Source of the DNA: an uncultured Desulfobacterales bacterium
GTDB lineage: Bacteria > Desulfobacterota > Desulfobacteria > Desulfobacterales > ETH-SRB1
Assembly (NCBI GenBank): GCA_965195235.1
Contig: CBDAFK010000159.1
Location: 1-55,695, forward strand
Direction: 5' to 3'
Length of the DNA: 55,695 nucleotides
Shown one piece after another: positions 8,842-54,435 of the stretch (the first letter of the stretch is position 1; each line of letters opens with the position of its first letter). The position numbers and the translations under genes were made by a program. The notes under the pieces are model-generated. The model had not been told where the DNA came from. It worked only from the letters and a program-made list of their open reading frames with translations, and made no database searches.

Positions 8842-9031
8842 GGTTAATGGTTCAAAGTTCCGGGGTTCACGGTTCAGGGTTAAACAGATGAGCTGATAGC
8901 TGTTAAACTGATAAACTATGAGTTATCTGAGCTCATTATGTCACCCAGGATACGCCTAACTGTGAACTGTGAACTGTAAACTGTGAACCTTGAACTGTGA
9001 ACCTTGAACTGTGAATTCTGAACCTGTGAAC
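8842..9031. repeat. Inverted heptamer arrays (ggttcaN units at 8842-8881; ctgtgaa/ccttgaa units at 8958-9031) around a small palindromic core
   Basis: Read directly. The core contains atgagct...agctcat. Confidence 0.9.
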
Positions 9032-10006: not shown

Positions 10007-10957
10007 GTGACTGTTACGAATTTAAGATGGATGGCGCTGATTATATCCTTTTTGGTCTTGATTCTGGGAGGATTAATAGGGCTTGATCTCGGCGGCTTCC
10101 TTCCTGTCTATGCCTGTCCTTATGTTGGGCAGACAAGGGGCGGGGTCTGTTTTTTGTTCAGACTCCAGTTCATCCTCGGAGTTGGATCCTGGGAAGCATT
10201 CAAGGCTCTGGGAGAGCACCTTCTCTATTTTTCTATTCTGGTCGTTCTTATCGGCAGGGCGTGGTGCGGATGGATCTGTCCTTTTGGATTTCTTCAGGAT
10301 GTCCTGGACTTGATCAGAAGAAAGCTCCATATAGGTTATATAAGGTTTCCCGAGCGGCTCCGGGCCAACTTAAGGTGCATGAAGTGGATATTTTTCTTTA
10401 TTGCTTTATTGATTCCCCTCTGGGTAGCCTATCCTTTATTAGCTCCATCTGTGGCCGGGGATCTGCGTCAACCTTTCTGCAGCCTGTGTCCAGGGAAATA
10501 TATCCTGCCGCTGGTTATTGGCAATCCCGATAGCGTGGCCGTTGATTTTAAAAGCGCCACTACTATTACCATGACCATTCTTGGTCTCACCTTTTCAACC
10601 ATTGCTATCATTGGCGCACTGCTGAAAAGACGATTCTGGTGCCCCTATTGTCCAATGGGCTTATTGCTTTCGTGGTACAAGAAAATCAGCTTTATAAAAC
10701 TCAAAAAAGATTGCCAGAAATGCACGATGTGCGAGGTCTGCTACAATGTTTGCCCGGTAGAGATACAACAGGTTTTTAAGGAAAGGGAAAACGAGGACGT
10801 TACTTTCACTGATTGTACTCTCTGCCTGCGATGTGTGGAATATTGTCCTGAAGACGGCGCACTCAGGGCAACCTTTCTTGGGAAAACAATCTATAAATCG
10901 ACCAGCAAGGGTTTCTTTTCCAGACAGCATATCATCCCGGGAGTTACTGATGATTAG
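10007..10957 (+). CDS. Membrane-bound 4Fe-4S polyferredoxin, NapH/MauN/CcoG-like
   Basis: Several TM helices, RAWCGWICPFG motif, and two ferredoxin motifs (CQKCTMCEVCYNVCP, CTLCLRCVEYCP). Confidence 0.8.
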   Translation: MTVTNLRWMALIISFLVLILGGLIGLDLGGFLPVYACPYVGQTRGGVCFLFRLQFILGVGSWEAFKALGEHLLYFSILVVLIGRAWCGWICPFGFLQDVLDLIRRKLHIGYIRFPERLRANLRCMKWIFFFIALLIPLWVAYPLLAPSVAGDLRQPFCSLCPGKYILPLVIGNPDSVAVDFKSATTITMTILGLTFSTIAIIGALLKRRFWCPYCPMGLLLSWYKKISFIKLKKDCQKCTMCEVCYNVCPVEIQQVFKERENEDVTFTDCTLCLRCVEYCPEDGALRATFLGKTIYKSTSKGFFSRQHIIPGVTDD

Positions 10958-11207
10958 GTGATTAGGTGATTAGGTGATTAGGTGATTAGGTGATTGGATG
11001 ATTGGATGATTGGATGATTGGATGATTGGATGATTGGATGATTGGATGATTGGATGATTGGATGATTGGATGATTAGATGATTAGATGATTAGATGATTA
11101 GATGATTAGATGATTAGATGATTAGATGATTAGATGATTAGATGATTAGATGATTAGATGATTAGATGATTAGATGATTGGATGATTGGATGATTCGTTG
11201 ATTGGAT
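10952..11207. repeat. 32-unit octamer tandem array in homogeneous blocks: 5x gattaggt, 10x gattggat, 13x gattagat, then gattggat x2, gattcgtt, gattggat
   Basis: Units counted from coordinates: 10952, 10992, 11072, 11176. The first unit supplies the TAG stop of the upstream gene. Confidence 0.97.
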
Positions 11208-11226
11208 GAGAGATAGAAGGTGAGTT

Positions 11227-11622
11227 GTGGCGGAGAAGGCGTTTAGGACATTTGAGGACCTGGAGTGCTGGCAGGCGTGTAGGGAGTTGCGAATGTTTGC
11301 AGCCAGGGTTTGTAGGGGATTTTCCAAAGAGGAAGAATATCGTCTTAAAGATCAGATTTTGCGGTCGGCTCGGAGTACGACAGCCAACATTGCGGAGGGC
11401 TATGGGCGATTCCACTATCAGGAAAACATCCAATACTGCCGCCACGCCAGAGGGTCATCATACGAAGTTTTGGATCATTTTATTACCGGAGTTGACGAGG
11501 ATCTAATCCCTGAAGCCAGTTTATCTGAATGCAGAATATTGGTGGAAAAAAGCGTTAAACTCTTGAATGGATACATTAGATATCTTGAATCAAAAAAGAA
11601 AAACAAATCAACAAATCGATGA
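11227..11622 (+). CDS. Four-helix-bundle protein (23S rRNA intervening-sequence protein / Avd-like family), copy 1
   Basis: Family hallmarks: FEDLECWQ, LKDQILRSARSTTANIAEGYGR, ARGSSYEVLDH. GTG start with SD gaaggtgag. Confidence 0.9.
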   Translation: MAEKAFRTFEDLECWQACRELRMFAARVCRGFSKEEEYRLKDQILRSARSTTANIAEGYGRFHYQENIQYCRHARGSSYEVLDHFITGVDEDLIPEASLSECRILVEKSVKLLNGYIRYLESKKKNKSTNR

Positions 11623-11684
11623 TTGGATGATTGGATGAAAAGAAAAACGAATGAACGAATCGACGAATCGACGAATCGACGAAA
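11621..11684. repeat. gattggat x2, then gaaaagaaaaa, then cgaatcga-type octamers in opposite orientation
   Basis: Read directly. Overlaps the stop codon of 4HB copy 1 and the first ORF-track start of the next gene. Confidence 0.8.
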
Positions 11685-13003
11685 TACTAATGACTAAGGA
11701 AGCTGATCAATTGCAAAAACGGAAAGCTCGTTTTGCCCGCGGTCTTGTTCGTTCAGCCGAAACAACGCTTGCTGAATTGGAGGAGAACCCGGATCTGCCA
11801 TTGAGTATGCACTATTTTATCAATATAATGAGGGAAGTATTTGTAAAGGACCGGGCGCATCGACTGCTGCTCCCATCTCAGCATCAAAGTACCAATAATA
11901 GGAAAATAATCGGCACATACTGCCTCATGGTTCCGGAAGAGCTAATCTATGCGGCAGGCGCGATACCCGTTCGACTTTGCGGAGGAAACTATGAGGCATC
12001 CCTGGCCGGAGATGAACTGGTGCCTCGTGATACATGTCCAGTGGTAAAGTCATCTATCGGTTTTACTTCTTTGAATCTGATGTCTTTATATCAGATGTGC
12101 GATGCAGTCATAGTTCCCACTACTTGTGATGCAAAGAGAAAGATGGGGGAGGAACTTTCAAAGTTTACTGAGGTCTGGATGCTCGAAGTGCCTCATATCA
12201 AAGATAGTGAAGGTTCAAGAAGACAATGGCTTCAACAACTTTACGCTTTAAAGAATAATATTGAAAAATTTACAGGTAAAAGTTTTATACGCAGGAAAAT
12301 CAGGCGCAAGGCGCTGGATGCCTCAATCAAGATGATAGGCTCGGCCCAGTACCAGGCTCGCAGGCTCTATGACATCAGGAAGTCATCTGCAGCCATAATC
12401 TCTGGGCGTGATGCAATGTTTGCAATCAATGCCTATAGTTATGATACAGCTTTTAAGTGGACAAAGGCAATGACCAGGTTGAATGATGAATTAGAAGTGC
12501 GATGCCATAAAGGTCAGTTTATTTGCAGTGAGCATACGCCGCGCATATTGATTGCAGGTTCTCCCCCGATCTTTCCTAACTGGAAAATCCCCTCTCTTAT
12601 CGAAGAGATGGGTGCTGTGATCGTAGCCGATGAGTCGTGTATGGGTAATCGTTATCTTTACGATCCTATAGGACTCACCGAAAAGTCGGTGACGGATATG
12701 ATGGTAGGCATTGCTGCCAGGTATATTATGCCTTGCGTCTGCCCATCATTTGCGCCAAATGAGGACAGGCTCTTTAGATTACTTCAAATGGCTGAAGAAT
12801 TCAGCATTGACGGCATCATCTATCATGTACTCAAAGGGTGCGTCATCTATGACTTTGAGCTGATTCGTGTTGAAAAGATAATGAAAGGCAAAAATATACC
12901 AGTGCTGCGGATAGAAACGGACTACTCTCCTGAAGACATTGAACAGCTCAGGACCCGTATTGAAGCATTTGTAGAGATGCTCGGAATAAGAAAAGAAAGA
13001 TAA
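11651..13003 (+). CDS. 2-hydroxyacyl-CoA dehydratase / benzoyl-CoA reductase BcrC/BadD / double-cubane-cluster-protein family (PF06050-like) Fe-S enzyme
   Basis: 450 aa. Family-like segments are IIGTYCLMVPEELIYAAGAIPVRLCGG, CDAVIVPTTCDAKRK and GIIYHVLKGCVIYD, with many conserved-looking Cys. Followed by an HgdC-type activator. Alternative start ATG 11690. Confidence 0.75.
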   Translation: MNESTNRRIDEILMTKEADQLQKRKARFARGLVRSAETTLAELEENPDLPLSMHYFINIMREVFVKDRAHRLLLPSQHQSTNNRKIIGTYCLMVPEELIYAAGAIPVRLCGGNYEASLAGDELVPRDTCPVVKSSIGFTSLNLMSLYQMCDAVIVPTTCDAKRKMGEELSKFTEVWMLEVPHIKDSEGSRRQWLQQLYALKNNIEKFTGKSFIRRKIRRKALDASIKMIGSAQYQARRLYDIRKSSAAIISGRDAMFAINAYSYDTAFKWTKAMTRLNDELEVRCHKGQFICSEHTPRILIAGSPPIFPNWKIPSLIEEMGAVIVADESCMGNRYLYDPIGLTEKSVTDMMVGIAARYIMPCVCPSFAPNEDRLFRLLQMAEEFSIDGIIYHVLKGCVIYDFELIRVEKIMKGKNIPVLRIETDYSPEDIEQLRTRIEAFVEMLGIRKER

Positions 13004-32202: not shown

Positions 32203-33123
32203 CTATGGTTCTACTATAACAACAAAATTAGAAGTGTAAGTAATATCGCATTCCCGATCATGCAATGTGATATAAACTGACGTCGGAGGTGGCGTACCTT
32301 TTAGTTCAGCAAACCAAATTAAATTTAAATCATCTGAGCAAGAAAGAGCACAAAACCCGTAAAGATAGTTATCATTATTATCATAGATCTTAACCCAAGT
32401 CCGCGAAGCATTGGTGTTCAAACCGCATGGTGGTAAATGAGGTGAAGGTACAAACAGTTCGTCAGGAAAATCTCCAGAGTTAGTTACTGCCAGTTTATAA
32501 CGAGTATACTCTGTTGAACCGATCCAATAATACTCCGATCCAGTGTAACTGAGATCTGGGCTTGGCAAATCGGGATAACATTGAACAACCCGTACCGTGA
32601 TGGGATCAGAGGTAGCGCTTACCTGCGAGTCAAGGAAGATGCCCTTGGCGTTAGCGCCTGAGTTCAGGTAGTGTATGCCAGCCTCGGTATACTCCTGCTG
32701 ACCACCCGGATTGACGTCTGTTGACACCCAGAAAACCAGGGTTTCTGATGCCCCTGGCGCCAAGTCTTCCACTTCCCAGGTCAGGAACACCTTCTCGGTC
32801 TTGCCTTTGATGGAGGTGTCCACCGAACCTATAGAAGCTTCATAATCACTCAACTCAAGGTCACCGCCGAGGCGGTCCTTGACCACGACGCCGGTAATCG
32901 AGTTGACGGCATCGTTGTTGGTAACCGTGATCTTCAACTGAAAGTCTGTCTCTTCCCCGACCTCAATTAGGCCATCTGCATCCTCATCCCAGTACTCAAC
33001 AAGCTCCTTGGTCACTGAAATCGGCCAATCTTCCGCGTCAGCACTGGCTATTCCCATCCCCATAACCATTGATATTGATAGGGTCAGAACCAGTGCCAAT
33101 ATTGGAAATAATACTTTTTTCAT
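32203..33123 (-). CDS. Secreted protein with DUF11-like beta-sandwich domain and Cys-containing C-terminal domain
   Basis: Signal peptide. ..LKITVTNNDAVNSITGVVVKDRLGGDLEL.. resembles the DUF11/Cna-B-type repeat. Confidence 0.55.
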   Translation of the reverse strand: MKKVLFPILALVLTLSISMVMGMGIASADAEDWPISVTKELVEYWDEDADGLIEVGEETDFQLKITVTNNDAVNSITGVVVKDRLGGDLELSDYEASIGSVDTSIKGKTEKVFLTWEVEDLAPGASETLVFWVSTDVNPGGQQEYTEAGIHYLNSGANAKGIFLDSQVSATSDPITVRVVQCYPDLPSPDLSYTGSEYYWIGSTEYTRYKLAVTNSGDFPDELFVPSPHLPPCGLNTNASRTWVKIYDNNDNYLYGFCALSCSDDLNLIWFAELKGTPPPTSVYITLHDRECDITYTSNFVVIVEP

Positions 33124-33362: not shown

Positions 33363-33797
33363 AAAAAAGCCGGGCCACCTTTTCCCAGGCAACCCGGCTA
33401 TCTTTTCCCAGGCAACCCGGCTATCTTTTTTCAAGACCCGTGGCTTTCCGTCCCCTGATCACTCAGGGTTTGGCTTTGTCTGCAGGGCTAATGGGGATCA
33501 TACGTCCCCACTGCACTTACCCCAATATTTAATTTTTAAGATGTGACCCTAATTGCTCTCAAAATAAAAAAGCCGGGCCACCTTTTCCCAGGCAACCCGG
33601 CTATCTTTTCCCAGGCAACCCGGCTATCTTTTTTCAAGACCCGTGGCTTTCCGCCCCCTGATCACTCAGGGTTTGGCTTTGTCTGCAGGGCTAATGGGGA
33701 CGTCATAAATTTATAAATCAAAGATTCATTGAGAGCAAAAAGTTATATTTGCAGACGTCCCCACTGCGGTTACCCCAATGTTTAATTTTTAAGATGT
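33363..33797 (-). repeat. Tandem duplication of a roughly 190-bp unit; each copy ends (minus strand) in a strong intrinsic terminator. Candidate tandem sRNA genes or 3'UTR elements
   Basis: Unit 1 is 33363-33547 and unit 2 is 33568-33797, the latter with a roughly 50-bp insertion at 33705-33753. Terminators lie at 33362-33399 and 33565-33602. ccctga-GUGA-ucaggg hairpin. Confidence 0.8.
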
Positions 33798-39369: not shown

Positions 39370-40427
39370 GGGGTCAAATCTTTATTCTTGAATCATGACG
39401 GATTATGTAGTATAGTCCTTACATGGCTCGACCACTAAGAATCCAATATGAAAACGCATACTACCACGTGACCTGTCGGGGCAATGCCCGGGAGGACATC
39501 TTTGGTGATGATGCAGATCGGAATGCCTTCCTTGAACTCCTGGCTCGATCAACCGAGATTTATCAGGTGGATATCCTGACTTTCGTTCTCATGACCAACC
39601 ACTTTCATATCGTCATCAAAACCCCATTGGCCAATCTCCAGGAATTCATGCGCCATTTTAACATATCCTATACCTCCTACTTCAACCGGATTCATCATCG
39701 AGTTGGCCATCTCTACCAGGGTCGTTACAAATCTTTCGTGATCGATGCTGACAGCTATCTCATGGAAGTGAGTCGATATCTACACCTGAACCCCGTCCGG
39801 ATAAAGAAAAAAGAAATCCTTCCGGTTGAAGATCGACGGAAACAGTTGAGAGGTTATCGGTGGAGCAGTTATCCCGACTACATCAGGGAAACGACCCGCT
39901 ATCCATGGTTGAACCGACATGAAGTTCTCGCGTATTTCGAAGGTGATAATCCCGACGGCAGGAAGGCATATGCCCGGTTTGTTGAGAGCGGCTTGAGCCT
40001 TAATATCCCCACTCCACTGGAGAAGGGCAAAGGGCATGGTATTATCGGAGACAAATCGTTTATTGAGAAGATCAGCACCAGCTATTTCAAATCCATGCAA
40101 AAGCGTGAAGTGCCAGCGTTAAGGAAAATTGAACGATACCTAAATCCGGAAAGAATCCTCGATGCCGTCGCTGTGGTAACCGGAGCGGAAAAGTCAGCGT
40201 TCCTTGCGAGGGGGTATCAGGGCATTGCCCGTGGATTGGCCATGGAATTGCTTTACCGACACGGTGGATTGTCCCAGCGGGAGATCGGTGAATTGATGGG
40301 AATAGACTACAGTTCCGTCAGTGTGGGGAGAAAACGATTTCGGACGATGGCAGAACAAGATAAAGAATACAAAAAGCTTGTAACCAGGGTTCAGGAAATC
40401 TTAATTCAAGAATAAAGATTTGACCCC
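39370..40427 (+). mobile_element. Y1-transposase element bounded by perfect 24-bp inverted repeats (RAYT/REP-like organisation)
   Basis: ggggtcaaatctttattcttgaat (39370-39393) is the exact reverse complement of 40404-40427. Confidence 0.7.
39423..40415 (+). CDS. IS200/IS605-type Y1 (HUH) transposase-like protein with C-terminal DnaA-C-like HTH
   Basis: YHVTCRGN, NHFHIVIKT (HUH), GHLYQGRYKS (catalytic Tyr region). C-terminal LSQREIGELMGIDYSSVSVGRKRF. Confidence 0.85.
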   Translation: MARPLRIQYENAYYHVTCRGNAREDIFGDDADRNAFLELLARSTEIYQVDILTFVLMTNHFHIVIKTPLANLQEFMRHFNISYTSYFNRIHHRVGHLYQGRYKSFVIDADSYLMEVSRYLHLNPVRIKKKEILPVEDRRKQLRGYRWSSYPDYIRETTRYPWLNRHEVLAYFEGDNPDGRKAYARFVESGLSLNIPTPLEKGKGHGIIGDKSFIEKISTSYFKSMQKREVPALRKIERYLNPERILDAVAVVTGAEKSAFLARGYQGIARGLAMELLYRHGGLSQREIGELMGIDYSSVSVGRKRFRTMAEQDKEYKKLVTRVQEILIQE

Positions 40428-42941: not shown

Positions 42942-43577
42942 TTATACAAGGCTGAAAATGGCCATATTGCCAAGGATATGGATGGTTATGGGAACCATCA
43001 GGTTTCCCTCTTTCTCGTAGGCCATGGCAAAAAGGATTCCGCCTGTTATCTGGGGCAAAGGAAATCCGGAGCCTGCGGGATGCGCAAGGACAAATGCCAG
43101 CGTGCTTATGGCCACGGCGGCAAAGACCCCCCATCGTCTGAAAAACCTGTAGATTATTCCCCTGAAGAAGATCTCCTCCGCCACGGGTGATATCATGCCA
43201 CCAATAAGGAAGAAGAGGATGATCTCGTTTCGTCCTGCCGGAAGGCGGGTGTGTATCAGTGTGAGTGGATTAATGCCGGCGGCAAAGAGCGCCGCAGAGA
43301 CAAGGAGCACAATTATCCCGAAACCGGCCGACCAGACAAGCCCCCTTTTCAGCCCGGAAAACATGCCGGACAGGGCGAAACCTATGGAAGCCAATCCCTT
43401 CTCCCTGTTCAAAACAATCAGCACAATCAGGACTGCCTCAAGGAGACGCGCGGCTCCCAGAAGAGGTGTCGAGGAATACGCGCCCGTTGAGGCGGCAATG
43501 CCCACGGCCGCCTCAATCACGGCAACCACGACAACAGAGATAAGCACGGTCTTTATTTCGATCCTGTCTGCTTCCAT
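42942..43577 (-). CDS. CPBP (CAAX/Abi) family intramembrane glutamic endopeptidase
   Basis: SPVAEEIFFRGIIY (EExxxR motif), FVLAH, ITIHILGN. Multi-TM. Confidence 0.85.
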   Translation of the reverse strand: MEADRIEIKTVLISVVVVAVIEAAVGIAASTGAYSSTPLLGAARLLEAVLIVLIVLNREKGLASIGFALSGMFSGLKRGLVWSAGFGIIVLLVSAALFAAGINPLTLIHTRLPAGRNEIILFFLIGGMISPVAEEIFFRGIIYRFFRRWGVFAAVAISTLAFVLAHPAGSGFPLPQITGGILFAMAYEKEGNLMVPITIHILGNMAIFSLV

Positions 43578-44896
43578 CCAAGTCTCCTCAGCGCCCTGTA
43601 GGCATACTGTCGGCTGTACCAGTCGCCGGATGTCTCAATCCTTTTTATGATCTCTTCGATGGCGCCCGGGTCTTTCCTCTCCCCCAGGGCATAAAAGGCC
43701 ATGCAGACCACATTTTGATTGGGGTCATTCAGCATGGACAGGAGTTCGCTGTAAGTCTCCGGTTTCCGGCTTTTGCTCATAGCCTTTGCCAGCCAGTAAC
43801 GTTCAGGTATATTAGGACTTTTCAGCATCTTTTTATAAGCCCTGAGATCGCCTATCTCCATCCCTTTCCGCTCCATAATCTTCAGAGCCGCGACTCTGTC
43901 TTGCCAGTGTCCGGATTCCATGGCTTCAGGAAGATTGCCAACATCTATTGTCTTTCTGTCGGCGGAATAAAGTGAAATCAGGATAATGGCCCCTATCGCA
44001 AAACAGAGAATCGAGGCTGTGACAGAAGCTTTTTTTGAATCCATAAAAATACACGATGCAAGATAGAACAAAGCATAAAGTGTAATGTACAAAATAAGAG
44101 GAAATCCTGTTAGAAGACAGAAAAAGGTAAACTTCCGGAATGAGGAATGCCGGTCGCTCTTCAGGGAAAACTCTCTCAACACATCCCCGGACGCGGCAAG
44201 AAAATCCCCCTGCGCAATCCGGAGAATCGTTTTTCCCCTGTTATTAAATGCAAGCATTCCGCCATCTTCCGTTATCTCCAGATCGGCCTTTGGATATCCT
44301 CTTATATTAAGGTAGTCATGGTCAAGCAGCTTCTTTTCCAGTAGATTTGCCGTGGAATCCTTCATGCCTTCAAGTCTGCATGTCCTGAGTATCTTCTGGT
44401 CCAGGGATTTGAAGGCCTCCGCAGGATAGAGTGTGTATTTGTAATAGAAGTCGCTGATTTTTGTTCCAAAAGAATTGGACATGAGGAGATTGTCTCTGAT
44501 GTCGAGAAATACGTCGCCACCAGCACAGGGCAGCCACAAAAGCGCCAGGAGCAAGAGAGGGATAACGGGAGCAAATTCACCGAACCGGGTTCGCTGCCTT
44601 GTCCACGCAGGCATCCATTTCAGAGCTGCCGCTGAAACCACGGCAGGCACAAAGACAAAATACGCAGTAGCAGCGGGGCAAAAACCGTGGAAATTCACCC
44701 ACAAAAGGCACCCCATCCAGGACAGCAAGAGAAGGATCGGGAAAATCCTGCTTCGGGAGAAGAGGCGGTCCCATGTCCAGACCGCGGCAAGGGTCAGAAC
44801 GGAGAGGCCGGCACCCACAATCAGCGTGAAAAACAGACCTCCGAAAAAAGCAGGTGCAAATTCCTTTAGATAATGCACGGTATGCTGGTTAGGCAC
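43553..44896 (-). CDS. Polytopic membrane protein with C-terminal HEAT-repeat domain
   Basis: Multiple TM helices. C-terminal ..DRVAALKIMERKG.., ..NVVCMAFYALGERKDPGAIEEIIKRIE..WYSRQYAYRALRRLG (HEAT/PBS-lyase-like). Its 3' end overlaps the CPBP start by 25 nt. Confidence 0.7.
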   Translation of the reverse strand: MPNQHTVHYLKEFAPAFFGGLFFTLIVGAGLSVLTLAAVWTWDRLFSRSRIFPILLLLSWMGCLLWVNFHGFCPAATAYFVFVPAVVSAAALKWMPAWTRQRTRFGEFAPVIPLLLLALLWLPCAGGDVFLDIRDNLLMSNSFGTKISDFYYKYTLYPAEAFKSLDQKILRTCRLEGMKDSTANLLEKKLLDHDYLNIRGYPKADLEITEDGGMLAFNNRGKTILRIAQGDFLAASGDVLREFSLKSDRHSSFRKFTFFCLLTGFPLILYITLYALFYLASCIFMDSKKASVTASILCFAIGAIILISLYSADRKTIDVGNLPEAMESGHWQDRVAALKIMERKGMEIGDLRAYKKMLKSPNIPERYWLAKAMSKSRKPETYSELLSMLNDPNQNVVCMAFYALGERKDPGAIEEIIKRIETSGDWYSRQYAYRALRRLGWKQTGSK

Positions 44897-45060: not shown

Positions 45061-45200
45061 GGGAGGTTGAAACCTCCCCTACCCTAAAATAATAAAATAG
45101 CACATTTGCCAACAGTGATGCAAATCCCATGTTGAAAATCCGCGTGTCGTGTGTTAGAAATTTTTATGGGTGGAATGGGAGGTTGAAACCTCCTTTACCC
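45061..45200. repeat. Two copies of a 24-nt hairpin-containing motif gggaggttgaaacctccYYtaccc (45061-45084, 45177-45200) upstream of gspI
   Basis: Read directly. Each copy contains the palindrome gggaggtt/aacctccc. Confidence 0.75.
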
Positions 45201-45224
45201 AGCAGTTGCAAAGAACTCTTATCA

Positions 45225-45596
45225 ATGTTACAAACCATGCGAATATTAAAGAAAAACGGCTTTACCCTTCTCGAGGTCATGATTGCCATGTCCATCCTTG
45301 CCATAACGCTCGTTGTGGTTTTTCAATCCCAGTCCCAGAGCATATCCATGGCAGGCAGGGCAAGGTTTGAAACCACTGCATCTTTTTTAGCGCAAAGCAA
45401 AATGGCGGAGATCGAGGCGGCAAATCCGGAAGAAATAGGCTCTAACAGCGGGAATTTCGGCGATGATTTTCCCGATTATTCATGGGAGGTGGATGTGACG
45501 GAAACAGAGATCGAACTCCTGAAAAAAATTGAGGTTAAGGTTGTAAATGAGAGAATGACGTCGAATAATTCATTCAGACTTGTGCTTTATAGATAG
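45225..45596 (+). CDS. gspI: T2SS minor pseudopilin GspI-like
   Basis: Prepilin N-terminus KKNGFTLLEVMIAMSILAI. About 120 aa. First gene of the pseudopilin series. Start 45225 or 45237. Confidence 0.75.
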   Translation: MLQTMRILKKNGFTLLEVMIAMSILAITLVVVFQSQSQSISMAGRARFETTASFLAQSKMAEIEAANPEEIGSNSGNFGDDFPDYSWEVDVTETEIELLKKIEVKVVNERMTSNNSFRLVLYR

Positions 45597-45665
45597 GCTG
45601 AAGGCTGTTAGGCTGAAGACTGTTAGTTGGATAGGCTGAAGGCTGTTAAGCTGTTAGGCTGAAGG
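45593..45665. repeat. Octamer array of aggctgNN units (aggctgaa/aggctgtt)
   Basis: Read directly. The first unit supplies the TAG stop of gspI, and the last units form the SD (gaaggag) of the 4HB gene. Confidence 0.9.
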
Positions 45666-45673
45666 AGAAAATC

Positions 45674-46027
45674 ATGCGTGATCATACTAAGCTCAGAGCG
45701 TTTGAACTATCTGACGAAGTGGTGCTTTTGATCTATCGAGCAACCAGGAAATTCCCCAAAGAGGAAATATATGGGTTGACCTCCCAAATGAGAAGAGCGG
45801 CGGTTTCAGTTCCATCAAACATAGTTGAAGGGTGCGCACGTGAGAGTCAGGCCGAGTATCTCCGCTTTCTTGAAATCGCGTTAGGCTCCTTAAGGGAGTT
45901 GCATTATCAGTTTGGTCTATCAAAACGTTTGGGGTATTCTGATGAACATGATATTTCTGATTGTGAATCAAAAATTGTGGAGACTGAGAAAGTTTTGGGT
46001 GCTCTGCTTCGATCAATGCGGAGATAG
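45674..46027 (+). CDS. Four-helix-bundle protein (23S rRNA IVS protein family), copy 2
   Basis: YGLTSQMRRAAVSVPSNIVEGCAR, FLEIALGSLRELHYQ. Confidence 0.9.
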   Translation: MRDHTKLRAFELSDEVVLLIYRATRKFPKEEIYGLTSQMRRAAVSVPSNIVEGCARESQAEYLRFLEIALGSLRELHYQFGLSKRLGYSDEHDISDCESKIVETEKVLGALLRSMRR

Positions 46028-46154
46028 GCTTAATTAGGCTGTAGGCTATTAGGCTGAAGGCTGTTAGGCTAAACAACCTAACCTAAATGCCTTCAGCCTA
46101 TAGCCTAAACAACCTAACCCTAACAGCCTACTAACAGACTACAGCCTAAAAAGC
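46024..46154. repeat. Palindromic double array: aggctNNN units forward (46024-46070), then reverse-complement units (46089-46154)
   Basis: Read directly. Supplies the TAG stop of 4HB copy 2. Confidence 0.9.
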
Positions 46155-46163
46155 TAAAAGACT

Positions 46164-46829
46164 ATGCAAAAAAGAAACGGGTTCACACTGATTGAGATAC
46201 TTATCGCCATATTTATACTGGCGACGGTCCTGACAACGGTATATGCCGCATATACCGGAACTTTCAGGATTGTAAAGGATACAGCGTATGCTGATGACAT
46301 CTACAGCATGGCAAGGGGCGCCATGAAAAGAATGACTGAAGATCTGGAGTCGTCCTGCAAGCACATGGATTCTTTCAGCTTCACCTCCGTGAAGGCCGAG
46401 ACGGAAATGGGGGAGTTCACTGAGCTGTCATTTCTTTCGTTTGCGCATCTGGACTTTGATGATGAAAAAACCTCGGGCATTGCCGTTATAAACTACTTCA
46501 TTGTGGAGGATGATGAGAAAGAGAGCTGCGTGCTGAAACGAAGGGATGAGCTGTACATGGATAAAATAGAAGGCGCGGAGGAAGATGCCTCGAGAAAAGG
46601 GGGATATGCCCTCTGTAACAGGCTGCAATCCCTGGCATATAAGTTTTACGACAGCAAAGGGGAGGAGTACGATTCCTGGGATTCGAACTCTGACCTGGAA
46701 ACACAGAAAGACAGCGCCCCGTCTGTTGTATCCATACAGATGGATTTTATAAATCCCGATGACAGAGACAAGCCTTACAGGTTTATGACAAAGGTATTTC
46801 TGCCAATGGCGGGGAGTTTAGAAGATTAG
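46164..46829 (+). CDS. gspJ: T2SS minor pseudopilin GspJ-like
   Basis: QKRNGFTLIEILIAIFILATV prepilin N-terminus, 221 aa. Confidence 0.75.
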   Translation: MQKRNGFTLIEILIAIFILATVLTTVYAAYTGTFRIVKDTAYADDIYSMARGAMKRMTEDLESSCKHMDSFSFTSVKAETEMGEFTELSFLSFAHLDFDDEKTSGIAVINYFIVEDDEKESCVLKRRDELYMDKIEGAEEDASRKGGYALCNRLQSLAYKFYDSKGEEYDSWDSNSDLETQKDSAPSVVSIQMDFINPDDRDKPYRFMTKVFLPMAGSLED

Positions 46830-47009
46830 AGGATTAGAAGGTTAGAAGATTAGAAGGTTAGAAGATTAGAAGGTTAGAAAATTAGAAGGTTGGAAGATTG
46901 GAAGATTAGAAGGTTGGAAAATTAGAAGGTTGGAAGGTGGGAAGGTGGGAAGATTGGAAGGTTAGAAGGTTGGAAGGTTGGAAGATTAGAAGGTTGGAAG
47001 GTGAGGAAG
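46818..47009. repeat. 24-unit octamer array ttRgaaNN (gattagaa/ggttagaa/ggttggaa...)
   Basis: Units counted by hand. Encodes the last 3 aa plus the TAG stop of gspJ and fills the spacer to within 1 nt of the next ATG. Confidence 0.95.
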
Positions 47010-47010
47010 C

Positions 47011-47394
47011 ATGGAAAGGAAACGGGATATTAGGCATTTCAGGGATTTGGATGTTTACAGGCGGGCTTTTGATGCTGCAATGGAGATTTTTCAAATGACC
47101 AAGGGGTTCCCTTCTGAAGAGAAATTTTCTCTGGTTGATCAGATTCGAAGGTCATCAAGATCTGTATGCGCCAACTTGGCAGAAGGGTGGCGGAAAAGAC
47201 GTTATCCTGCCGTTTTCAAGAACAAGGTGACAGATTCTATGCAAGAAGCATCCGAAACGCAGTGCTGGTTGGAATTTTCTTTGGCATGCAAGTATATTAA
47301 TAAAAATACCTTCAGTAAGCTTGATAATGAATACGAGCAGCTTATTTCAATGCTCAATTCCATGGAAATGAACGCTAAGAAATTCTGTTTTTAA
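47011..47394 (+). CDS. Four-helix-bundle protein (23S rRNA IVS protein family), copy 3
   Basis: FRDLDVYRRAF, LVDQIRRSSRSVCANLAEGWRKR. Confidence 0.9.
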   Translation: MERKRDIRHFRDLDVYRRAFDAAMEIFQMTKGFPSEEKFSLVDQIRRSSRSVCANLAEGWRKRRYPAVFKNKVTDSMQEASETQCWLEFSLACKYINKNTFSKLDNEYEQLISMLNSMEMNAKKFCF

Positions 47395-47401
47395 AGGCTT
47401 G

Positions 47402-47440
47402 TTCTTCTAATTTTCCTAACTTCTTACCTTCTGATTTTCT
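47402..47440. repeat. Short array ttcttcta attttcct aacttctt accttctg attttct, the reverse-complement orientation of the 46818 array
   Basis: Read directly. Confidence 0.8.
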
Positions 47441-47460: not shown

Positions 47461-48438
47461 ATGATAAAGGTCTTGATGAATGAAAGGGGCGTGGCCCTGA
47501 TACTTGTGATACTGATGATCAGCATCATTATCGCTGTCACTCTCCAGTTGAATATTTCCTCAAGGTCTGAGATATATGAAGCCGCAAATCTTGGGGACGG
47601 TATCAGGGCCACCTGCGCTGCCAAGTCCGGGTTTTACATGGGAGAGGCGCTTCTGGCTGAAGACACAAACAACTTTGATTCCCTGAATGAAGACTGGGCA
47701 AATCTGGAATCAGTTTCCGCCGGCTCAGGAACCCTTTTTGACGGAGAACATTTCGGGTTGAATATCGAGGATGAATCCGGTAAAATTCCAATCAACAGCC
47801 TTATAAAAGAGAATGATGAATACAACGACGGCATCAAGGAACTCCTGAAAAGGTTTCTGAGTTTGCCGGAATTTGACATAGATGAGCAGCAGGTCCGTGA
47901 CATTGTGGATGCGGTCAAAGACTGGATGGATGAAGATAACGAAGTAACCGGGTTTAGCGCTGAAAACATGTACTACGGAGGACTGGAAAAGCCGTATTCA
48001 TGCAAAAATGCCCCCCTGGATTGCATTGAAGAACTTTTAATGATAAAGGGAATTACTGAAGATTTGTATTACGGCGCGGGCGAGACACCCGGCATCGCAA
48101 AGTATCTCACACTGCACGGCAAGGGGGAAATAAACATCAATACCGCTCCGAATTTGATTTTGAAGGCGCTTTCGGATGAAATTACTAATGAAATGGTCTC
48201 TGATATGGATGAATTCCGAAGAGATGAAGAAAACGACCTTTCGAAATCCACATGGCATAAAGATATCTCTGGAATGAAGAATATACCCATTGATTCCAAG
48301 CTGATAACCGCAAAGAGCGATATATTCAGGATCACATCCACAGGTTATATGAATGATATCAGCAAAAGGGTAAGCGGAGTAATCGAAAGACACATCGACG
48401 GCAGAGCAGTAAAGATATTGTCCTGGAGGGCGGACTGA
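47461..48438 (+). CDS. gspK: T2SS minor pseudopilin GspK-like
   Basis: NERGVALILVILMISII N-terminus and GKGEININTAP motif, both typical of GspK. Confidence 0.8.
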   Translation: MIKVLMNERGVALILVILMISIIIAVTLQLNISSRSEIYEAANLGDGIRATCAAKSGFYMGEALLAEDTNNFDSLNEDWANLESVSAGSGTLFDGEHFGLNIEDESGKIPINSLIKENDEYNDGIKELLKRFLSLPEFDIDEQQVRDIVDAVKDWMDEDNEVTGFSAENMYYGGLEKPYSCKNAPLDCIEELLMIKGITEDLYYGAGETPGIAKYLTLHGKGEININTAPNLILKALSDEITNEMVSDMDEFRRDEENDLSKSTWHKDISGMKNIPIDSKLITAKSDIFRITSTGYMNDISKRVSGVIERHIDGRAVKILSWRAD

Positions 48439-49967: not shown

Positions 49968-49977
49968 CTACTCAGGT

Positions 49978-50278
49978 GGATTAGAGGATTAGAGGATTAG
50001 AAGGTGGGAAGAAATGAACATCGAACATCGAACGTCCAACATCGAATCTTGAATGGAAAAAATGAAGAAACAAAAATAGTCTTTGGATATTTGTATTGTT
50101 TTTTCAATTTTAAAATAATTTGAAGAGCGAAGCGACATCATTATTCGACGTTCGATGTTCAATGTTCGATGTTGGACGTTCATCTTTTTATATAAAACAT
50201 CGAATGTTGAATGGAAAGAAACAAAAGGCAAAAGACTGGAAAAAAAAGATGAACATCGAATATTGAATGAGAAAAAGG
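49978..50278. repeat. Composite repeat spacer
   Basis: Components are gattagag octamers, gaacatc heptamers (50014-50050), an inverted copy (50140-50182), and three catcgaatNttgaatgRaaa modules. Read directly. Confidence 0.85.
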
Positions 50279-50341: not shown

Positions 50342-50887
50342 TTGGATTTTTGGACAAAATTTAAGTTAAAACTGACAAGGCAGGAAAGATATTACGTATC
50401 TGCATGCGTTGCCCTAATTGCTCTTTTTATCATCTTCCAGTTTATCCTGTCTCCTTTTTTTGAGGCAAAGGGGAATGTCAAACGTTCTATTCAGGCAAAG
50501 GAAAAGACACTGAAAGAGCTTGTCTCCCTAGGTTCGGAATACGGGGCGCTGAAAGAGGATTCGGTGGACATCAAGAAGAGGCTTGCCCTCAGATCTAAAA
50601 ATTTTACTCTGTTTTCCTTTCTCGAAAAACAGGCCGGTCGAAGCGGGATAAAACCAGGCATAAAATATATGAAACCCTCTGCCTCAATAGACAAGGGAAA
50701 CTACAAAGAATCATCTGTGGAAATGAAACTGGAAAACATCACGCTGAAACAGCTCGTCGAATATTTGTATCTCATAGAGTCGCCTGAAAATCTGGTCAGG
50801 ATCAAGAGGATTTCCGTAAAACAAAGCAAGGGAAGCCCGGAATACATGACCGCGCTGATCCATCTGGTGACATATCTGGAAGATTAG
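50342..50887 (+). CDS. gspM: GspM-like T2SS protein
   Basis: N-terminal TM (YYVSACVALIALFIIFQFIL), then ..LKQLVEYLYLIES..VRIKRISVKQ... TTG start is tentative. Confidence 0.65.
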   Translation: MDFWTKFKLKLTRQERYYVSACVALIALFIIFQFILSPFFEAKGNVKRSIQAKEKTLKELVSLGSEYGALKEDSVDIKKRLALRSKNFTLFSFLEKQAGRSGIKPGIKYMKPSASIDKGNYKESSVEMKLENITLKQLVEYLYLIESPENLVRIKRISVKQSKGSPEYMTALIHLVTYLED

Positions 50888-51039
50888 AAGGTGAGAAGAT
50901 TAGAAGGTGAGAAGATTAGAAGATTGGCTCGTTGCTCGTTGCTCGTTGCTCGTTGCTGGTTGCTCGTTGCTGGTTGCTCGTTGAACTGTAAACTGTGAAC
51001 TGTGAACTGTGAACCCTGAACCTTTGAACCGTGAACCGT
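50877..51039. repeat. Three concatenated arrays: gattagaaggtgagaa octamers, gctcgtt heptamers x8, and gaactgt/gaacc heptamers
   Basis: Read directly. Encodes the last residues and the TAG stop of gspM. Confidence 0.95.
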
Positions 51040-51873: not shown

Positions 51874-51980
51874 GATAGGCTGTAGGCATTTAGGCTGTAG
51901 GCTGAAGGTTACAAAAACTAACAGCCTACAGTCTAAACAACATATAGCCTTCAGTCTAAAAGCCTACAGCCTAAACAACC
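51874..51980. repeat. Palindromic double array of aggctgNN units (forward 51874-51915, reverse 51920-51980)
   Basis: Read directly. Confidence 0.9.
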
Positions 51981-54033: not shown

Positions 54034-54435
54034 ATGAGCTATATTAATGATGCCCTGAAGAAGGTGCAGAAAGAAAAAGATAGTCTCTATCAGCGCTACG
54101 GCAACATTATATCCGACCCTGTCTATCACCGGACCGGACGCGGAAAAAGGTGGATGATTACAGGCAGCGTGATTGTTTTGATTCTGCTTGCACTGTCGGT
54201 CTTTATACTGTTAAGATACAATGCCTCTTCGGGTACAGACAACAGCAACATGGCCATTATACAGGATGCAGGGGATAAGACAGAAGTCAGAAGTCGGAGG
54301 TCAGAGGCCAGAGATCAGAGGTCGGAGATCAGAAGTCAGAAGTCAGAGGTCAGAGGTCAGAGGTCGGAGGTCGGAGATCAGAGGTCGGAGGTCAGGGGTC
54401 AGGGGTCAGAAGTCAGAGGTCAGATGAAAATTTAA
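54034..54435 (+). CDS. GspB-like N-terminal domain, TM, and heptamer-array-encoded C-terminus
   Basis: MSYINDALKKVQKEKD resembles the GspB N-terminus. TM at VIVLILLALSVFILL. The C-terminal about 50 aa (SEVRxxR heptads) are encoded by the 54281-54420 array. Confidence 0.45.
   Translation: MSYINDALKKVQKEKDSLYQRYGNIISDPVYHRTGRGKRWMITGSVIVLILLALSVFILLRYNASSGTDNSNMAIIQDAGDKTEVRSRRSEARDQRSEIRSQKSEVRGQRSEVGDQRSEVRGQGSEVRGQMKI
54281..54424. repeat. 20 tandem heptamers cagaggt/cagaagt/cggaggt inside the ORF
   Basis: Units counted by hand. All three forward frames are open across the array. Confidence 0.95.

Follow-up and report, generated by a model that had tools for sequence, protein, structure and literature searches.

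Four-helix-bundle genes within inverted arrays of 7-8-nt repeats: candidate intervening-sequence-type cassettes in the operon spacers of an uncultured Desulfobacterales bacterium

Introduction

Intervening sequences (IVSs) of 23S rRNA that bear an S23p open reading frame (ORF) occur in Leptospira, Coxiella burnetii, Brucella and Xanthomonas, and the origin and mobility of these elements have been an open question since the early 1990s. In C. burnetii, the S23p ORF of the IVS is preceded just before its ATG by two to three copies of GACAGAT, in a number that varies among strains, and an AG-rich Shine-Dalgarno sequence merges with these heptamers; the 28-bp terminal stem of the IVS is cut by RNase III in vitro, and the IVS is regarded as a selfish element whose mobility is unknown (PMC4990558). 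Here we describe genes of the same protein family, encoding four-helix-bundle (4HB) proteins, that lie in operon spacers of an uncultured Desulfobacterales bacterium, each of them between an upstream array of forward 7-8-nt units and a downstream flank that holds units of the same family in reverse-complement orientation. We refer to a gene together with its arms as a cassette, and to the whole stretch of DNA analysed, contig CBDAFK010000159.1 of assembly GCA_965195235.1 (55,695 nt), as the window. Two of its three cassettes are found in the operon of a type II secretion system (T2SS). An earlier reading of the window from its letters only (the sequence-only reading) was not aware of any description of the arrangement. 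Full-text searches, with subscription journals largely uncovered, likewise gave no account of 4HB genes lying between inverted repeat arrays at sites other than rRNA.

Results

The sequence-only reading had placed two 4HB genes in the gspI-gspJ and gspJ-gspK spacers, which is borne out by matches to PF05635 and TIGR02436 and by the gspI, gspJ-like and gspK neighbours; it had overlooked a third cassette at 10949-11691. The parts of the three cassettes are listed below.

45593..45673, + strand: 5' arm of cassette 1, nine forward (T)AGGCTG-type units with alternating 7/8-nt spacing
45674..46027, + strand: 4HB-1, 117 aa, PF05635/TIGR02436
46033..46071, + strand: five forward TAGGCTG units of cassette 1, 3' of the gene
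46076..46161, + strand: 3' arm of cassette 1, reverse-complement units of the CAGCCTA type
46818..47007, + strand: 5' arm of cassette 2, ~23 forward 8-nt units (TTAGAAGG / TTGGAAGG / GTGGGAAG)
47011..47394, + strand: 4HB-2, 127 aa, PF05635/TIGR02436
47402..47440, + strand: 3' arm of cassette 2, 4-5 reverse-complement units (CTTCTAAT TTTCCTAA CTTCTTAC CTTCTGAT)
10949..11213, + strand: 5' arm of cassette 3, ~32 forward 8-nt GATGATT(A/G) units (GATGATTA / GGTGATTA / GATGATTG), ending in GATTCGTTGATTGG
11227..11622, + strand: 4HB-3, 131 aa, PF05635/TIGR02436 (E 3.5e-25)
11599..11691, + strand: 3' flank of cassette 3, two copies of AACAAATC, two forward GATGATTG units, then five (A/G)ACGAATC units

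Forward arrays had been claimed upstream of both T2SS-resident genes and both are present, with nine AGGCTG-type units before 4HB-1 and 23.1 copies of TTAGAAGG at 46818-47002 before 4HB-2 (Tandem Repeats Finder, TRF; the earlier count was 24). The degenerate last units of each array make up the Shine-Dalgarno sequence, again as proposed: GAAGGAG at 45662-45668 for 4HB-1 and GGTGAGGA at 47000-47007 for 4HB-2. Downstream, the reverse-complement units are there as well, positions 45593-45612 and 46082-46101 being 90% complementary over 20 nt in cassette 1, and positions 46876-46912 and 47404-47440 being 84% complementary over 37 nt in cassette 2, but the earlier description of the cassette 1 flank was incomplete since it also has the five forward units at 46033-46071, which repeat the 5' arm in direct orientation and pair with the first reverse units in a local hairpin, of which they supply the 5' half. 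A conserved end motif, CTAAACAACCT, is found twice in the 3' arm of cassette 1 (46069-46079 and 46105-46115). In cassette 3, whose gene lies between a ferredoxin-like gene and a 2-hydroxyglutaryl-CoA dehydratase D-component gene, the (A/G)ACGAATC units are the reverse complement of GATTCGT(T/C). The number of units upstream of 4HB-3 is ~32 in the window versus ~16 or 4-8 at that site in other assemblies whose protein is 99-100% identical (L107, L108, L111 and L112-L116); the array either expands and contracts rapidly or has been collapsed in assembly, as may happen to arrays in short-read assemblies.

All three proteins are clear members of the family, 4HB-1, 4HB-2 and 4HB-3 scoring 116.3, 113.6 and 88.7 bits with PF05635 (cutoff 33.8) and 116.9, 103.1 and 86.4 bits with TIGR02436 (cutoff 24), respectively, with E values of 9e-34 for 4HB-1 and 7e-33 for 4HB-2. 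Residues 2-117 of 4HB-1 match XCC0516, a solved four-helix-bundle homopentamer (PDB 2GSC), with an E value of 1.6e-26. Pairwise identity among the three is just 22-37%.

The same genes carry the same kind of arms elsewhere. A search with 4HB-1 gave thousands of relatives, the best 120 of which are 82-97% identical and lie mostly on very short contigs; the tiny contigs of 4HB genes would be explained if short-read assemblies break at the arrays. Three long contigs place the 4HB-1 relative in unrelated neighbourhoods, one behind efp, one behind an Rce1-like gene and one, in a Verrucomicrobiota metagenome-assembled genome (MAG), with bipA and an ABC-F gene on its two sides; in all three it lies between (A)TAGGCTG and CAGCCTA units that end in CTAAACAACCT; this end motif is common to cassette 1 and loci L003, L004, L005 and L088. 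Viral contigs also carry 4HB-1 relatives (57-64% identity), with related heptamers that are forward upstream and reverse-complemented downstream (TAGGCTG, TAGTCCG, GGAGTCT and GGCTCCA). A scan of viral contigs with 4HB-3 gave no match; its relatives came from a protein search instead, and in three other neighbourhoods they have GATGATT/GATTCGT units forward and ACGAATC units reversed.

The sequence-only reading had called for a survey of 4HB genes in the rest of the genome and in related genomes; a scan of one genome per species with 4HB-2 gave 80 loci from many phyla, whose titles include Desulfobacteraceae, Melioribacteraceae, Planctomycetota, Nitrospirota, Omnitrophota, Verrucomicrobiota, Caldilineaceae, Pyrinomonadaceae, Sphingobacteriales, Nostocales and others, these labels being taken from MAG bins and possibly wrong in part. 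Arrays of period 7 or 8 were found in at least one flank at 67/76 loci, as compared with 3/148 control pieces. Since RNAduplex energy discriminates poorly between such populations (120-nt control pieces also reach -50 to -60 kcal/mol), shared heptamers and array density were used instead. When the downstream flank is reverse-complemented, it shares a median of 8 heptamers with the upstream flank, as against a median of 1 in each of the controls (direct comparison, pieces 600 nt farther out, and mismatched loci). Array density over 70 loci is 26% and 18% in the 100 nt that adjoin the gene on its two sides; it drops to ~1% or less at distances above 300 nt and is 0.45% within the gene itself.

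The unit family differs by protein clade: TAGGCTG in clade 1, NNAGAAGG in clade 2 and GATGATT/GATTCGT in clade 3. The motif table separates the three clades as follows.

Clade 1: AGRCT 5.1, GAAG 0.4, GATT-type 0.1
Clade 2: AGRCT 0.2, GAAG 7.1, GATT-type 0.4
Clade 3: AGRCT 0.2, GAAG 1.0, GATT-type 9.8

More distant relatives of 4HB-2 have further unit families, GGACGA(A/G)G, GGAGATGG, GACAAGRT, GGCGAATG and GGAGACAC. Among loci of the same clade, arms are more alike inside a locus than between loci. Each protein clade retains its own unit family across neighbourhoods, phyla and viral contigs, and the gene with its arms behaves as one heritable unit that is gained or lost in operon spacers. As a separate observation, 4HB genes in three Bacteroidota loci (L078, L082 and L083) are flanked by ACTG-containing heptamers, GGCAGTT / GACAGTG upstream and AACTGC / AAACTGA downstream, which resemble the AACTG-type arrays of the window at 8881-9031 and 50982-51036.

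Relatives of the T2SS operon were found by a metagenome scan with GspK, and their spacers compare with those of the window as follows.

Window: gspI-gspJ, 4HB-1 with forward and reverse arms; gspJ-gspK, 4HB-2 with forward and reverse arms
L088 (GspK 81%): gspI-gspJ, 4HB-1 ortholog with the same forward/reverse units and the end motif CTAAACAACCT; gspJ-gspK, three forward units and a small GAACATC hairpin, without 4HB-2
L086 (GspK 80%): gspI-gspJ, no 4HB gene, five forward TAGGCTG units behind the junction ctttatagATAGGCTGAAGG; gspJ-gspK, no 4HB gene, forward GATTAGAG-type units
L087 (GspK 80%): gspI-gspJ outside the covered sequence; gspJ-gspK, TCGGAGG x3
L090/L091 (GspK 63%): neither 4HB genes nor arrays over 11 kb; gspJ overlaps gspK

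The sequence-only reading had proposed to compare orthologous operons, an array-free gene at one site in all of them being the mark of an ordinary conserved gene. The comparison shows otherwise: L088 has one of the two genes, and L086 and L090/L091 have neither. Because one or neither of the two genes is present in the same spacers of close relatives, they are accessory inserts in hypervariable spacers and not fixed genes of the operon. The junction ctttatagATAGGCTGAAGG is identical in L086 and the window. These few genomes are compatible with the loss of a cassette that left its arrays as well as with insertion into existing arrays; the direct units on both sides of 4HB-1 offer an easy route of deletion.

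In the 4HB-1 clade, the ratio of nonsynonymous to synonymous divergence (dN/dS) is 0.04-0.12 at dS of 0.4 to >2, which shows the 4HB protein to be functional and under strong purifying selection. In the 4HB-2 clade dS is saturated in all comparisons. The non-coding unit and the end motif are retained although synonymous sites are saturated, and slippage homogenises units only within an array; we infer from this retention across genomes that the unit sequence itself is under selection. As the 4HB protein is the sole clade-specific factor in the cassette, the most economical reading would be that it recognises its cognate repeats.

RNA folds of the cassettes were compared with dinucleotide shuffles, as had been suggested for the two T2SS spacers, and the expected excess stability is seen, clearly for cassette 1 (z = -5.2, 0/100 shuffles as good) and modestly for cassette 2 (z = -2.1, 0/20 shuffles as good); cassette 3 gave z = -4.0. 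A flank-to-flank stem is present in the minimum-energy structures of the cassettes, and the predicted flank-flank duplexes comprise 60 bp (-67 kcal/mol) in cassette 1 and 48 bp (-54 kcal/mol) in cassette 2; the complementary termini enclosing the insert form a strong predicted stem in cassettes 1 and 2 and a weak one in cassette 3.

Several features of the arms depend on the strand. The purine share of the coding strand is 0.70 in the upstream flank versus 0.45 in the downstream flank, across clades with unrelated units, and the sense duplex is stabler than the antisense duplex in 59/93 cassettes (Wilcoxon p = 5e-4), with -56 versus -29 kcal/mol for cassette 2, -39 versus -21 kcal/mol for cassette 3, and no difference for cassette 1. 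Consensus hits for promoters or terminators belonging to the cassettes are no more frequent than in shuffles. Purine-rich upstream arms, the greater stability of sense duplexes and the lack of a promoter or terminator excess together favour a role in a read-through transcript, the effect being modest. By a crude heuristic, the upstream neighbour is co-oriented with the 4HB gene in 79% of cases and the downstream neighbour in 68%. Operon spacers are the usual but not the obligatory site of the cassettes; a strict rule of sense orientation in operons can be ruled out, about one fifth to one third of cassettes not being co-oriented with a neighbour.

Arrays of the cassette families also occur in T2SS spacers that hold no 4HB gene:

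51876..51975, + strand: gene-less hairpin of the cassette-1 family, forward TAGGCTG then CAGCCTA units, ending in CTAAACAACCT
49974..50184, + strand: gene-less arrays in the spacer between the gspL-like gene and gspM, GGATTAGA x3 (cassette-2 family), then an inverted pair

The hairpin is conserved in position in L086 (9309-9415) and may represent a cassette from which the ORF has gone. The inverted pair of the second feature is GAACATC / GATGTTC around an A/T-rich loop of ~100 nt. We also noted a recurring module in several T2SS spacers, apparently replacing or accompanying the 8-mer arrays, which consists of an A-rich run, GATGAACATCGAAC and following bases, the palindrome CAACATCGAATGTTG and a second A-rich run (window 50010-50060 and 50240-50275; L086 4808-4850, 4900-4945 and 8343-8375; L088 1028-1070).

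Heptamer arrays with the unit TAACTGA have been reported previously (PMC4679880), and whether they are borne by 4HB genes was examined in viral contigs with TAACTGA x3 (107 loci, 132 arrays), by searching the ORFs with a hidden Markov model of the collected 4HB proteins. No 4HB-like ORF lies within 200 nt of any of the 132 arrays, which rules out 4HB genes as the vehicle in these viral contigs. In cyanophage-like viral contigs, two TAACTGA x3 arrays ~432 nt apart surround an opposite-strand ORF of 122 aa that is not 4HB (L136 2453-2905, also L138, L151 and L165); the arrays are direct and not inverted, and the ORF may represent a further case of a small gene lying among heptamer arrays.

The T2SS genes around cassettes 1 and 2 were assigned as follows.

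45129..45596, + strand: gspI (minor pseudopilin), TIGR01707 E 2e-15, likely start ATG 45249
46164..46829, + strand: GspJ-like pseudopilin, below the gspJ cutoff, N-methyl motif present
47461..48438, + strand: gspK, NF037980 E 3e-33 (115.7 bits, cutoff 130), PF21687 (T2SSK_1st) 55.5 bits, above cutoff

The array units extend into these genes. The stop codon of gspI, TAG at 45594-45596, is the first TAG of the cassette-1 array and lies inside its first unit, and the stop codon of the GspJ-like gene (46827-46829) is encoded, together with the last residues L-E-D, by the first units of the cassette-2 array; GspJ of L088 ends in ...LPLAG* versus L-E-D-stop in the window. The gspK product has an exact 325-aa match on record. 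The genes 3' of gspK are, in order, a PilM/PilN-type gspL-like gene, gspM, an unassigned ORF, gspC and an AAA_22 ATPase gene. Upstream of gspI, a short hairpin, GGGAGGTTGAAACCTCC(C/T), is present in two copies (45061-45085 and 45178-45200). The named close matches of the window are Deltaproteobacteria, Desulfobacteraceae and Desulfatiglandales MAGs, and assembly GCA_028571455.1 is closely related.

Elsewhere in the window, a HEAT_2 and Rce1-like gene pair at 42942-44896 recurs in L004 (1815-4357), where a cassette of the 4HB-1 clade lies 3' of the Rce1-like gene; at the corresponding place in the window there is none. An ORF of 330 aa at 39423-40415 (+) begins with a Y1_Tnp (IS200-like) domain at its N terminus (E 1.6e-13), which is followed by a long C-terminal extension, and no 7-8-nt arrays flank it on either side in the TRF listing. 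Some 20 copies of CAGAGGT at 54281-54424 lie within ORF 54034-54435, for which neither Pfam nor NCBIfam gives a match; the repeats are either translated or the cause of a spurious ORF call. On the - strand, a tandem pair of c-di-GMP-I-GGC riboswitch aptamers (RF03167, 69.6 and 68.4 bits) is found at 33407-33483 and 33610-33686, upstream of ORF 32203-33123; the pair lies within a duplicated segment, ~203 nt apart, with 23-nt repeats at 33379-33429 and 33582-33632.

Discussion

We consider it probable, if well short of certain, that each element is a selfish cassette of IVS type residing in operon spacers. Such a cassette would comprise a 4HB gene, an upstream array of purine-rich forward 7-8-nt units, the end of which forms the ribosome-binding site of the gene, and the same units in reverse complement on the 3' side. 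In a read-through transcript, the arms would pair into a long imperfect stem around the ORF and, by analogy with the 23S rRNA IVS, this stem would be a substrate of RNase III, so that the insert could be tolerated within the transcription unit. The 4HB oligomer, the only product of the cassette, may recognise its own repeats as RNA or as DNA, a proposal made on account of the clade-specific conservation of the unit, and recognition might serve autoregulation of the cassette and/or its maintenance and spread. Deletion between direct units would then give rise to ORF-less arrays and hairpins such as those that litter the genome. The sequence-only reading had likewise proposed IVS-like cassettes; accessory occurrence, travel with inverted arms and a Coxiella-like build all speak for that proposal, but the arrays of this genome are not specific to 4HB genes. 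That reading would also have processing segment the T2SS polycistron; the transcript-level evidence bearing on this is the modest bias towards stabler sense duplexes.

A number of observations weigh against the selfish-cassette reading. The excess stability of the cassette 2 fold is modest (z = -2.1), and the arms of cassette 3 pair poorly, at -28.5 kcal/mol with many bulges. Co-orientation of 79% and 68% is near the estimated general bacterial background. Arrays are not exclusive to 4HB genes, here or elsewhere: ~20 spacers of the window carry them (TRF) and only three hold a 4HB gene, and the TAACTGA arrays of viral contigs have no 4HB gene nearby (0/132). With arrays making up 2.8% of the window bases and most of these ~20 spacers being gene-less, the window alone is insufficient to tie arrays to 4HB genes. 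L086 retains forward arrays of both families without 4HB genes, for which reason arrays could predate the cassettes or serve as landing pads. Inspection by eye of a small number of junctions with repetitive ends (window, L003-L005 and L088) showed no target-site duplication; no mobility enzyme was found either, no transposase being linked to cassettes in the loci examined. The uncertain taxon labels of the MAG-derived loci are a further reservation.

The alternative that survives best, which we nevertheless regard as rather improbable, is a mobile element acting at the DNA level, in which the arrays would be terminal inverted repeats or single-strand hairpins, an enzyme in trans (e.g. of the HUH/Y1 type) or the 4HB protein itself would move the element, and RNA pairing would be incidental. 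Presence/absence polymorphism and the spread over phyla and viral contigs would fit such an element, as would the conserved imperfect termini of clade 1 (left, AGGTGGATAGGCTG; right, CAGCCTAAACAACCT), the Y1_Tnp ORF of the window and the direct units flanking 4HB-1, which could mediate deletion or recombination. The purine-rich coding strand of the upstream arms and the stabler sense duplexes point instead to a strand-specific constraint at the transcript level, and it also weighs against mobility of this type that no target-site duplication was seen by eye, that no transposase is linked to the cassettes in the loci examined and that TRF lists no arrays beside the Y1_Tnp gene.

Less likely again is a repeat-binding regulator, by which the 4HB protein would act in trans on RNA or DNA, the spacer arrays would be its operators and the cassette would be a regulator gene within its own site; we see this as a minor contender. 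Units of the cassette-1 and -2 families do occur in gene-less T2SS spacers (49978-50001, 50879-50925 and 51876-51975), clade-specific units are conserved at saturated dS, and arrays overlap ribosome-binding sites. One would expect a regulator to persist or disappear along with its operators, whereas close relatives differ in the presence of the gene even where the arrays are retained (L086); in most other genomes, moreover, arrays are confined to ~200 nt around the 4HB gene, and in the 55 kb covered by the window many array families have no cognate 4HB gene.

Coincidence, with 4HB genes as ordinary small genes among the slippage-prone spacers of an array-rich genome, similar to the short tandemly repeated repetitive (STRR) sequences, is very improbable. 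The abundance of arrays in the window, mostly in spacers without a 4HB gene, is what it would predict, and heptamer arrays without 4HB genes exist elsewhere (PMC4679880), but it is already contradicted by the shared-heptamer test, the array density and the clade motif table: arrays are enriched ~30-fold beside 4HB genes at 70 loci of many phyla, the units of the downstream flank are reverse-complemented, each clade has its own unit family, and a given gene has its usual arms even where the neighbourhoods are unrelated. That the cassettes are remnants of diversity-generating retroelements (DGRs), with the 4HB protein as their Avd, is most unlikely despite weak matches of 4HB-1 to bAvd (PF22296, E 2.5e-4) and NF033474, as the latter (31 bits) is far under its cutoff of 80 and no reverse transcriptase is present among the scanned ORFs of the window or the listed genes of related loci; a template/variable repeat pair was not noticed either, no dedicated search having been made for one.

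Beyond the selfish-cassette reading of these loci, we tentatively propose a broader one, which we hold to be possible but on balance doubtful: that PF05635 proteins are sequence-specific binders of 7-8-nt tandem repeats and, together with inverted arrays, form a very widespread and unrecognised class of self-propagating cassettes. The classical 23S rRNA IVS would be the rRNA-resident special case of this class, the protein would drive insertion, array growth or retention, and decayed cassettes would be one source of the enigmatic short tandem arrays of intergenic spacers in some bacterial lineages. A practical caution from the present findings is that the operon spacers of array-rich genomes may be processed into distinct RNAs. 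For PF05635, a very large family with no assigned function, testable predictions can now be made, namely cognate binding, RNase III processing in polycistronic mRNAs, and array-mediated gain and loss.

Comparison with known systems

The cassettes share features with four described systems. The Avd proteins of DGRs (review, PMC10053308) have a homologous four-helix-bundle fold, and solved Avd structures are pentameric; 4HB-1 differs in that it does not reach the NF033474 equivalog model, and the missed cutoff, together with the absence of a reverse transcriptase from the ORFs scanned, rules out a DGR/Avd identity. Repetitive extragenic palindromes and bacterial interspersed mosaic elements with their associated tyrosine transposases (REP/BIME-RAYT) resemble the arrays as short, structured, hairpin-forming repeats that fill operon spacers, and the window does contain a Y1-type ORF. 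The repeats here are tandem 7-8-mers and not 20-40-nt palindromes, however, and the linked gene is a 4HB gene and not a HUH transposase; the tandem units and the lack of arrays beside the Y1_Tnp ORF rule out this system.

The STRR and heptamer arrays of cyanobacteria, Beggiatoaceae and Bacteroidetes, among them TAACTGA, are likewise tandem 7-8-nt intergenic units that often abut start codons, and they show a patchy cross-phylum distribution with no known vehicle (PMC4679880). The likeness is a descriptive one, as the unit sequences differ. Unlike these, the arrays described here are inverted pairs around one gene family and have lineage-specific units. The figure legend of one paper names a 23S rRNA IVS protein among CRISPR-system/array-associated proteins, which, as far as that legend goes, could reflect arrays of the present kind.

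The closest likeness is to the 23S rRNA IVS, with which the cassettes share the protein family, its position within terminal inverted repeats that form a stem, and, as in Coxiella, heptamers before the ATG. They differ in that their arms are long arrays of up to 32 units, in contrast to the 28-bp Coxiella stem, and in that they reside in the spacers of protein-coding operons and not in helix 25 or 45 of 23S rRNA. Rfam found no rRNA in the window, and of 40 relatives' loci scanned with Rfam none is in rRNA (0/40), which suggests that life outside rRNA is common for the PF05635 family. To judge from their sequences, the cassettes are built like an IVS but fail its defining location, and would best be described as IVS-type elements outside rRNA with lineage-specific repeat arms.

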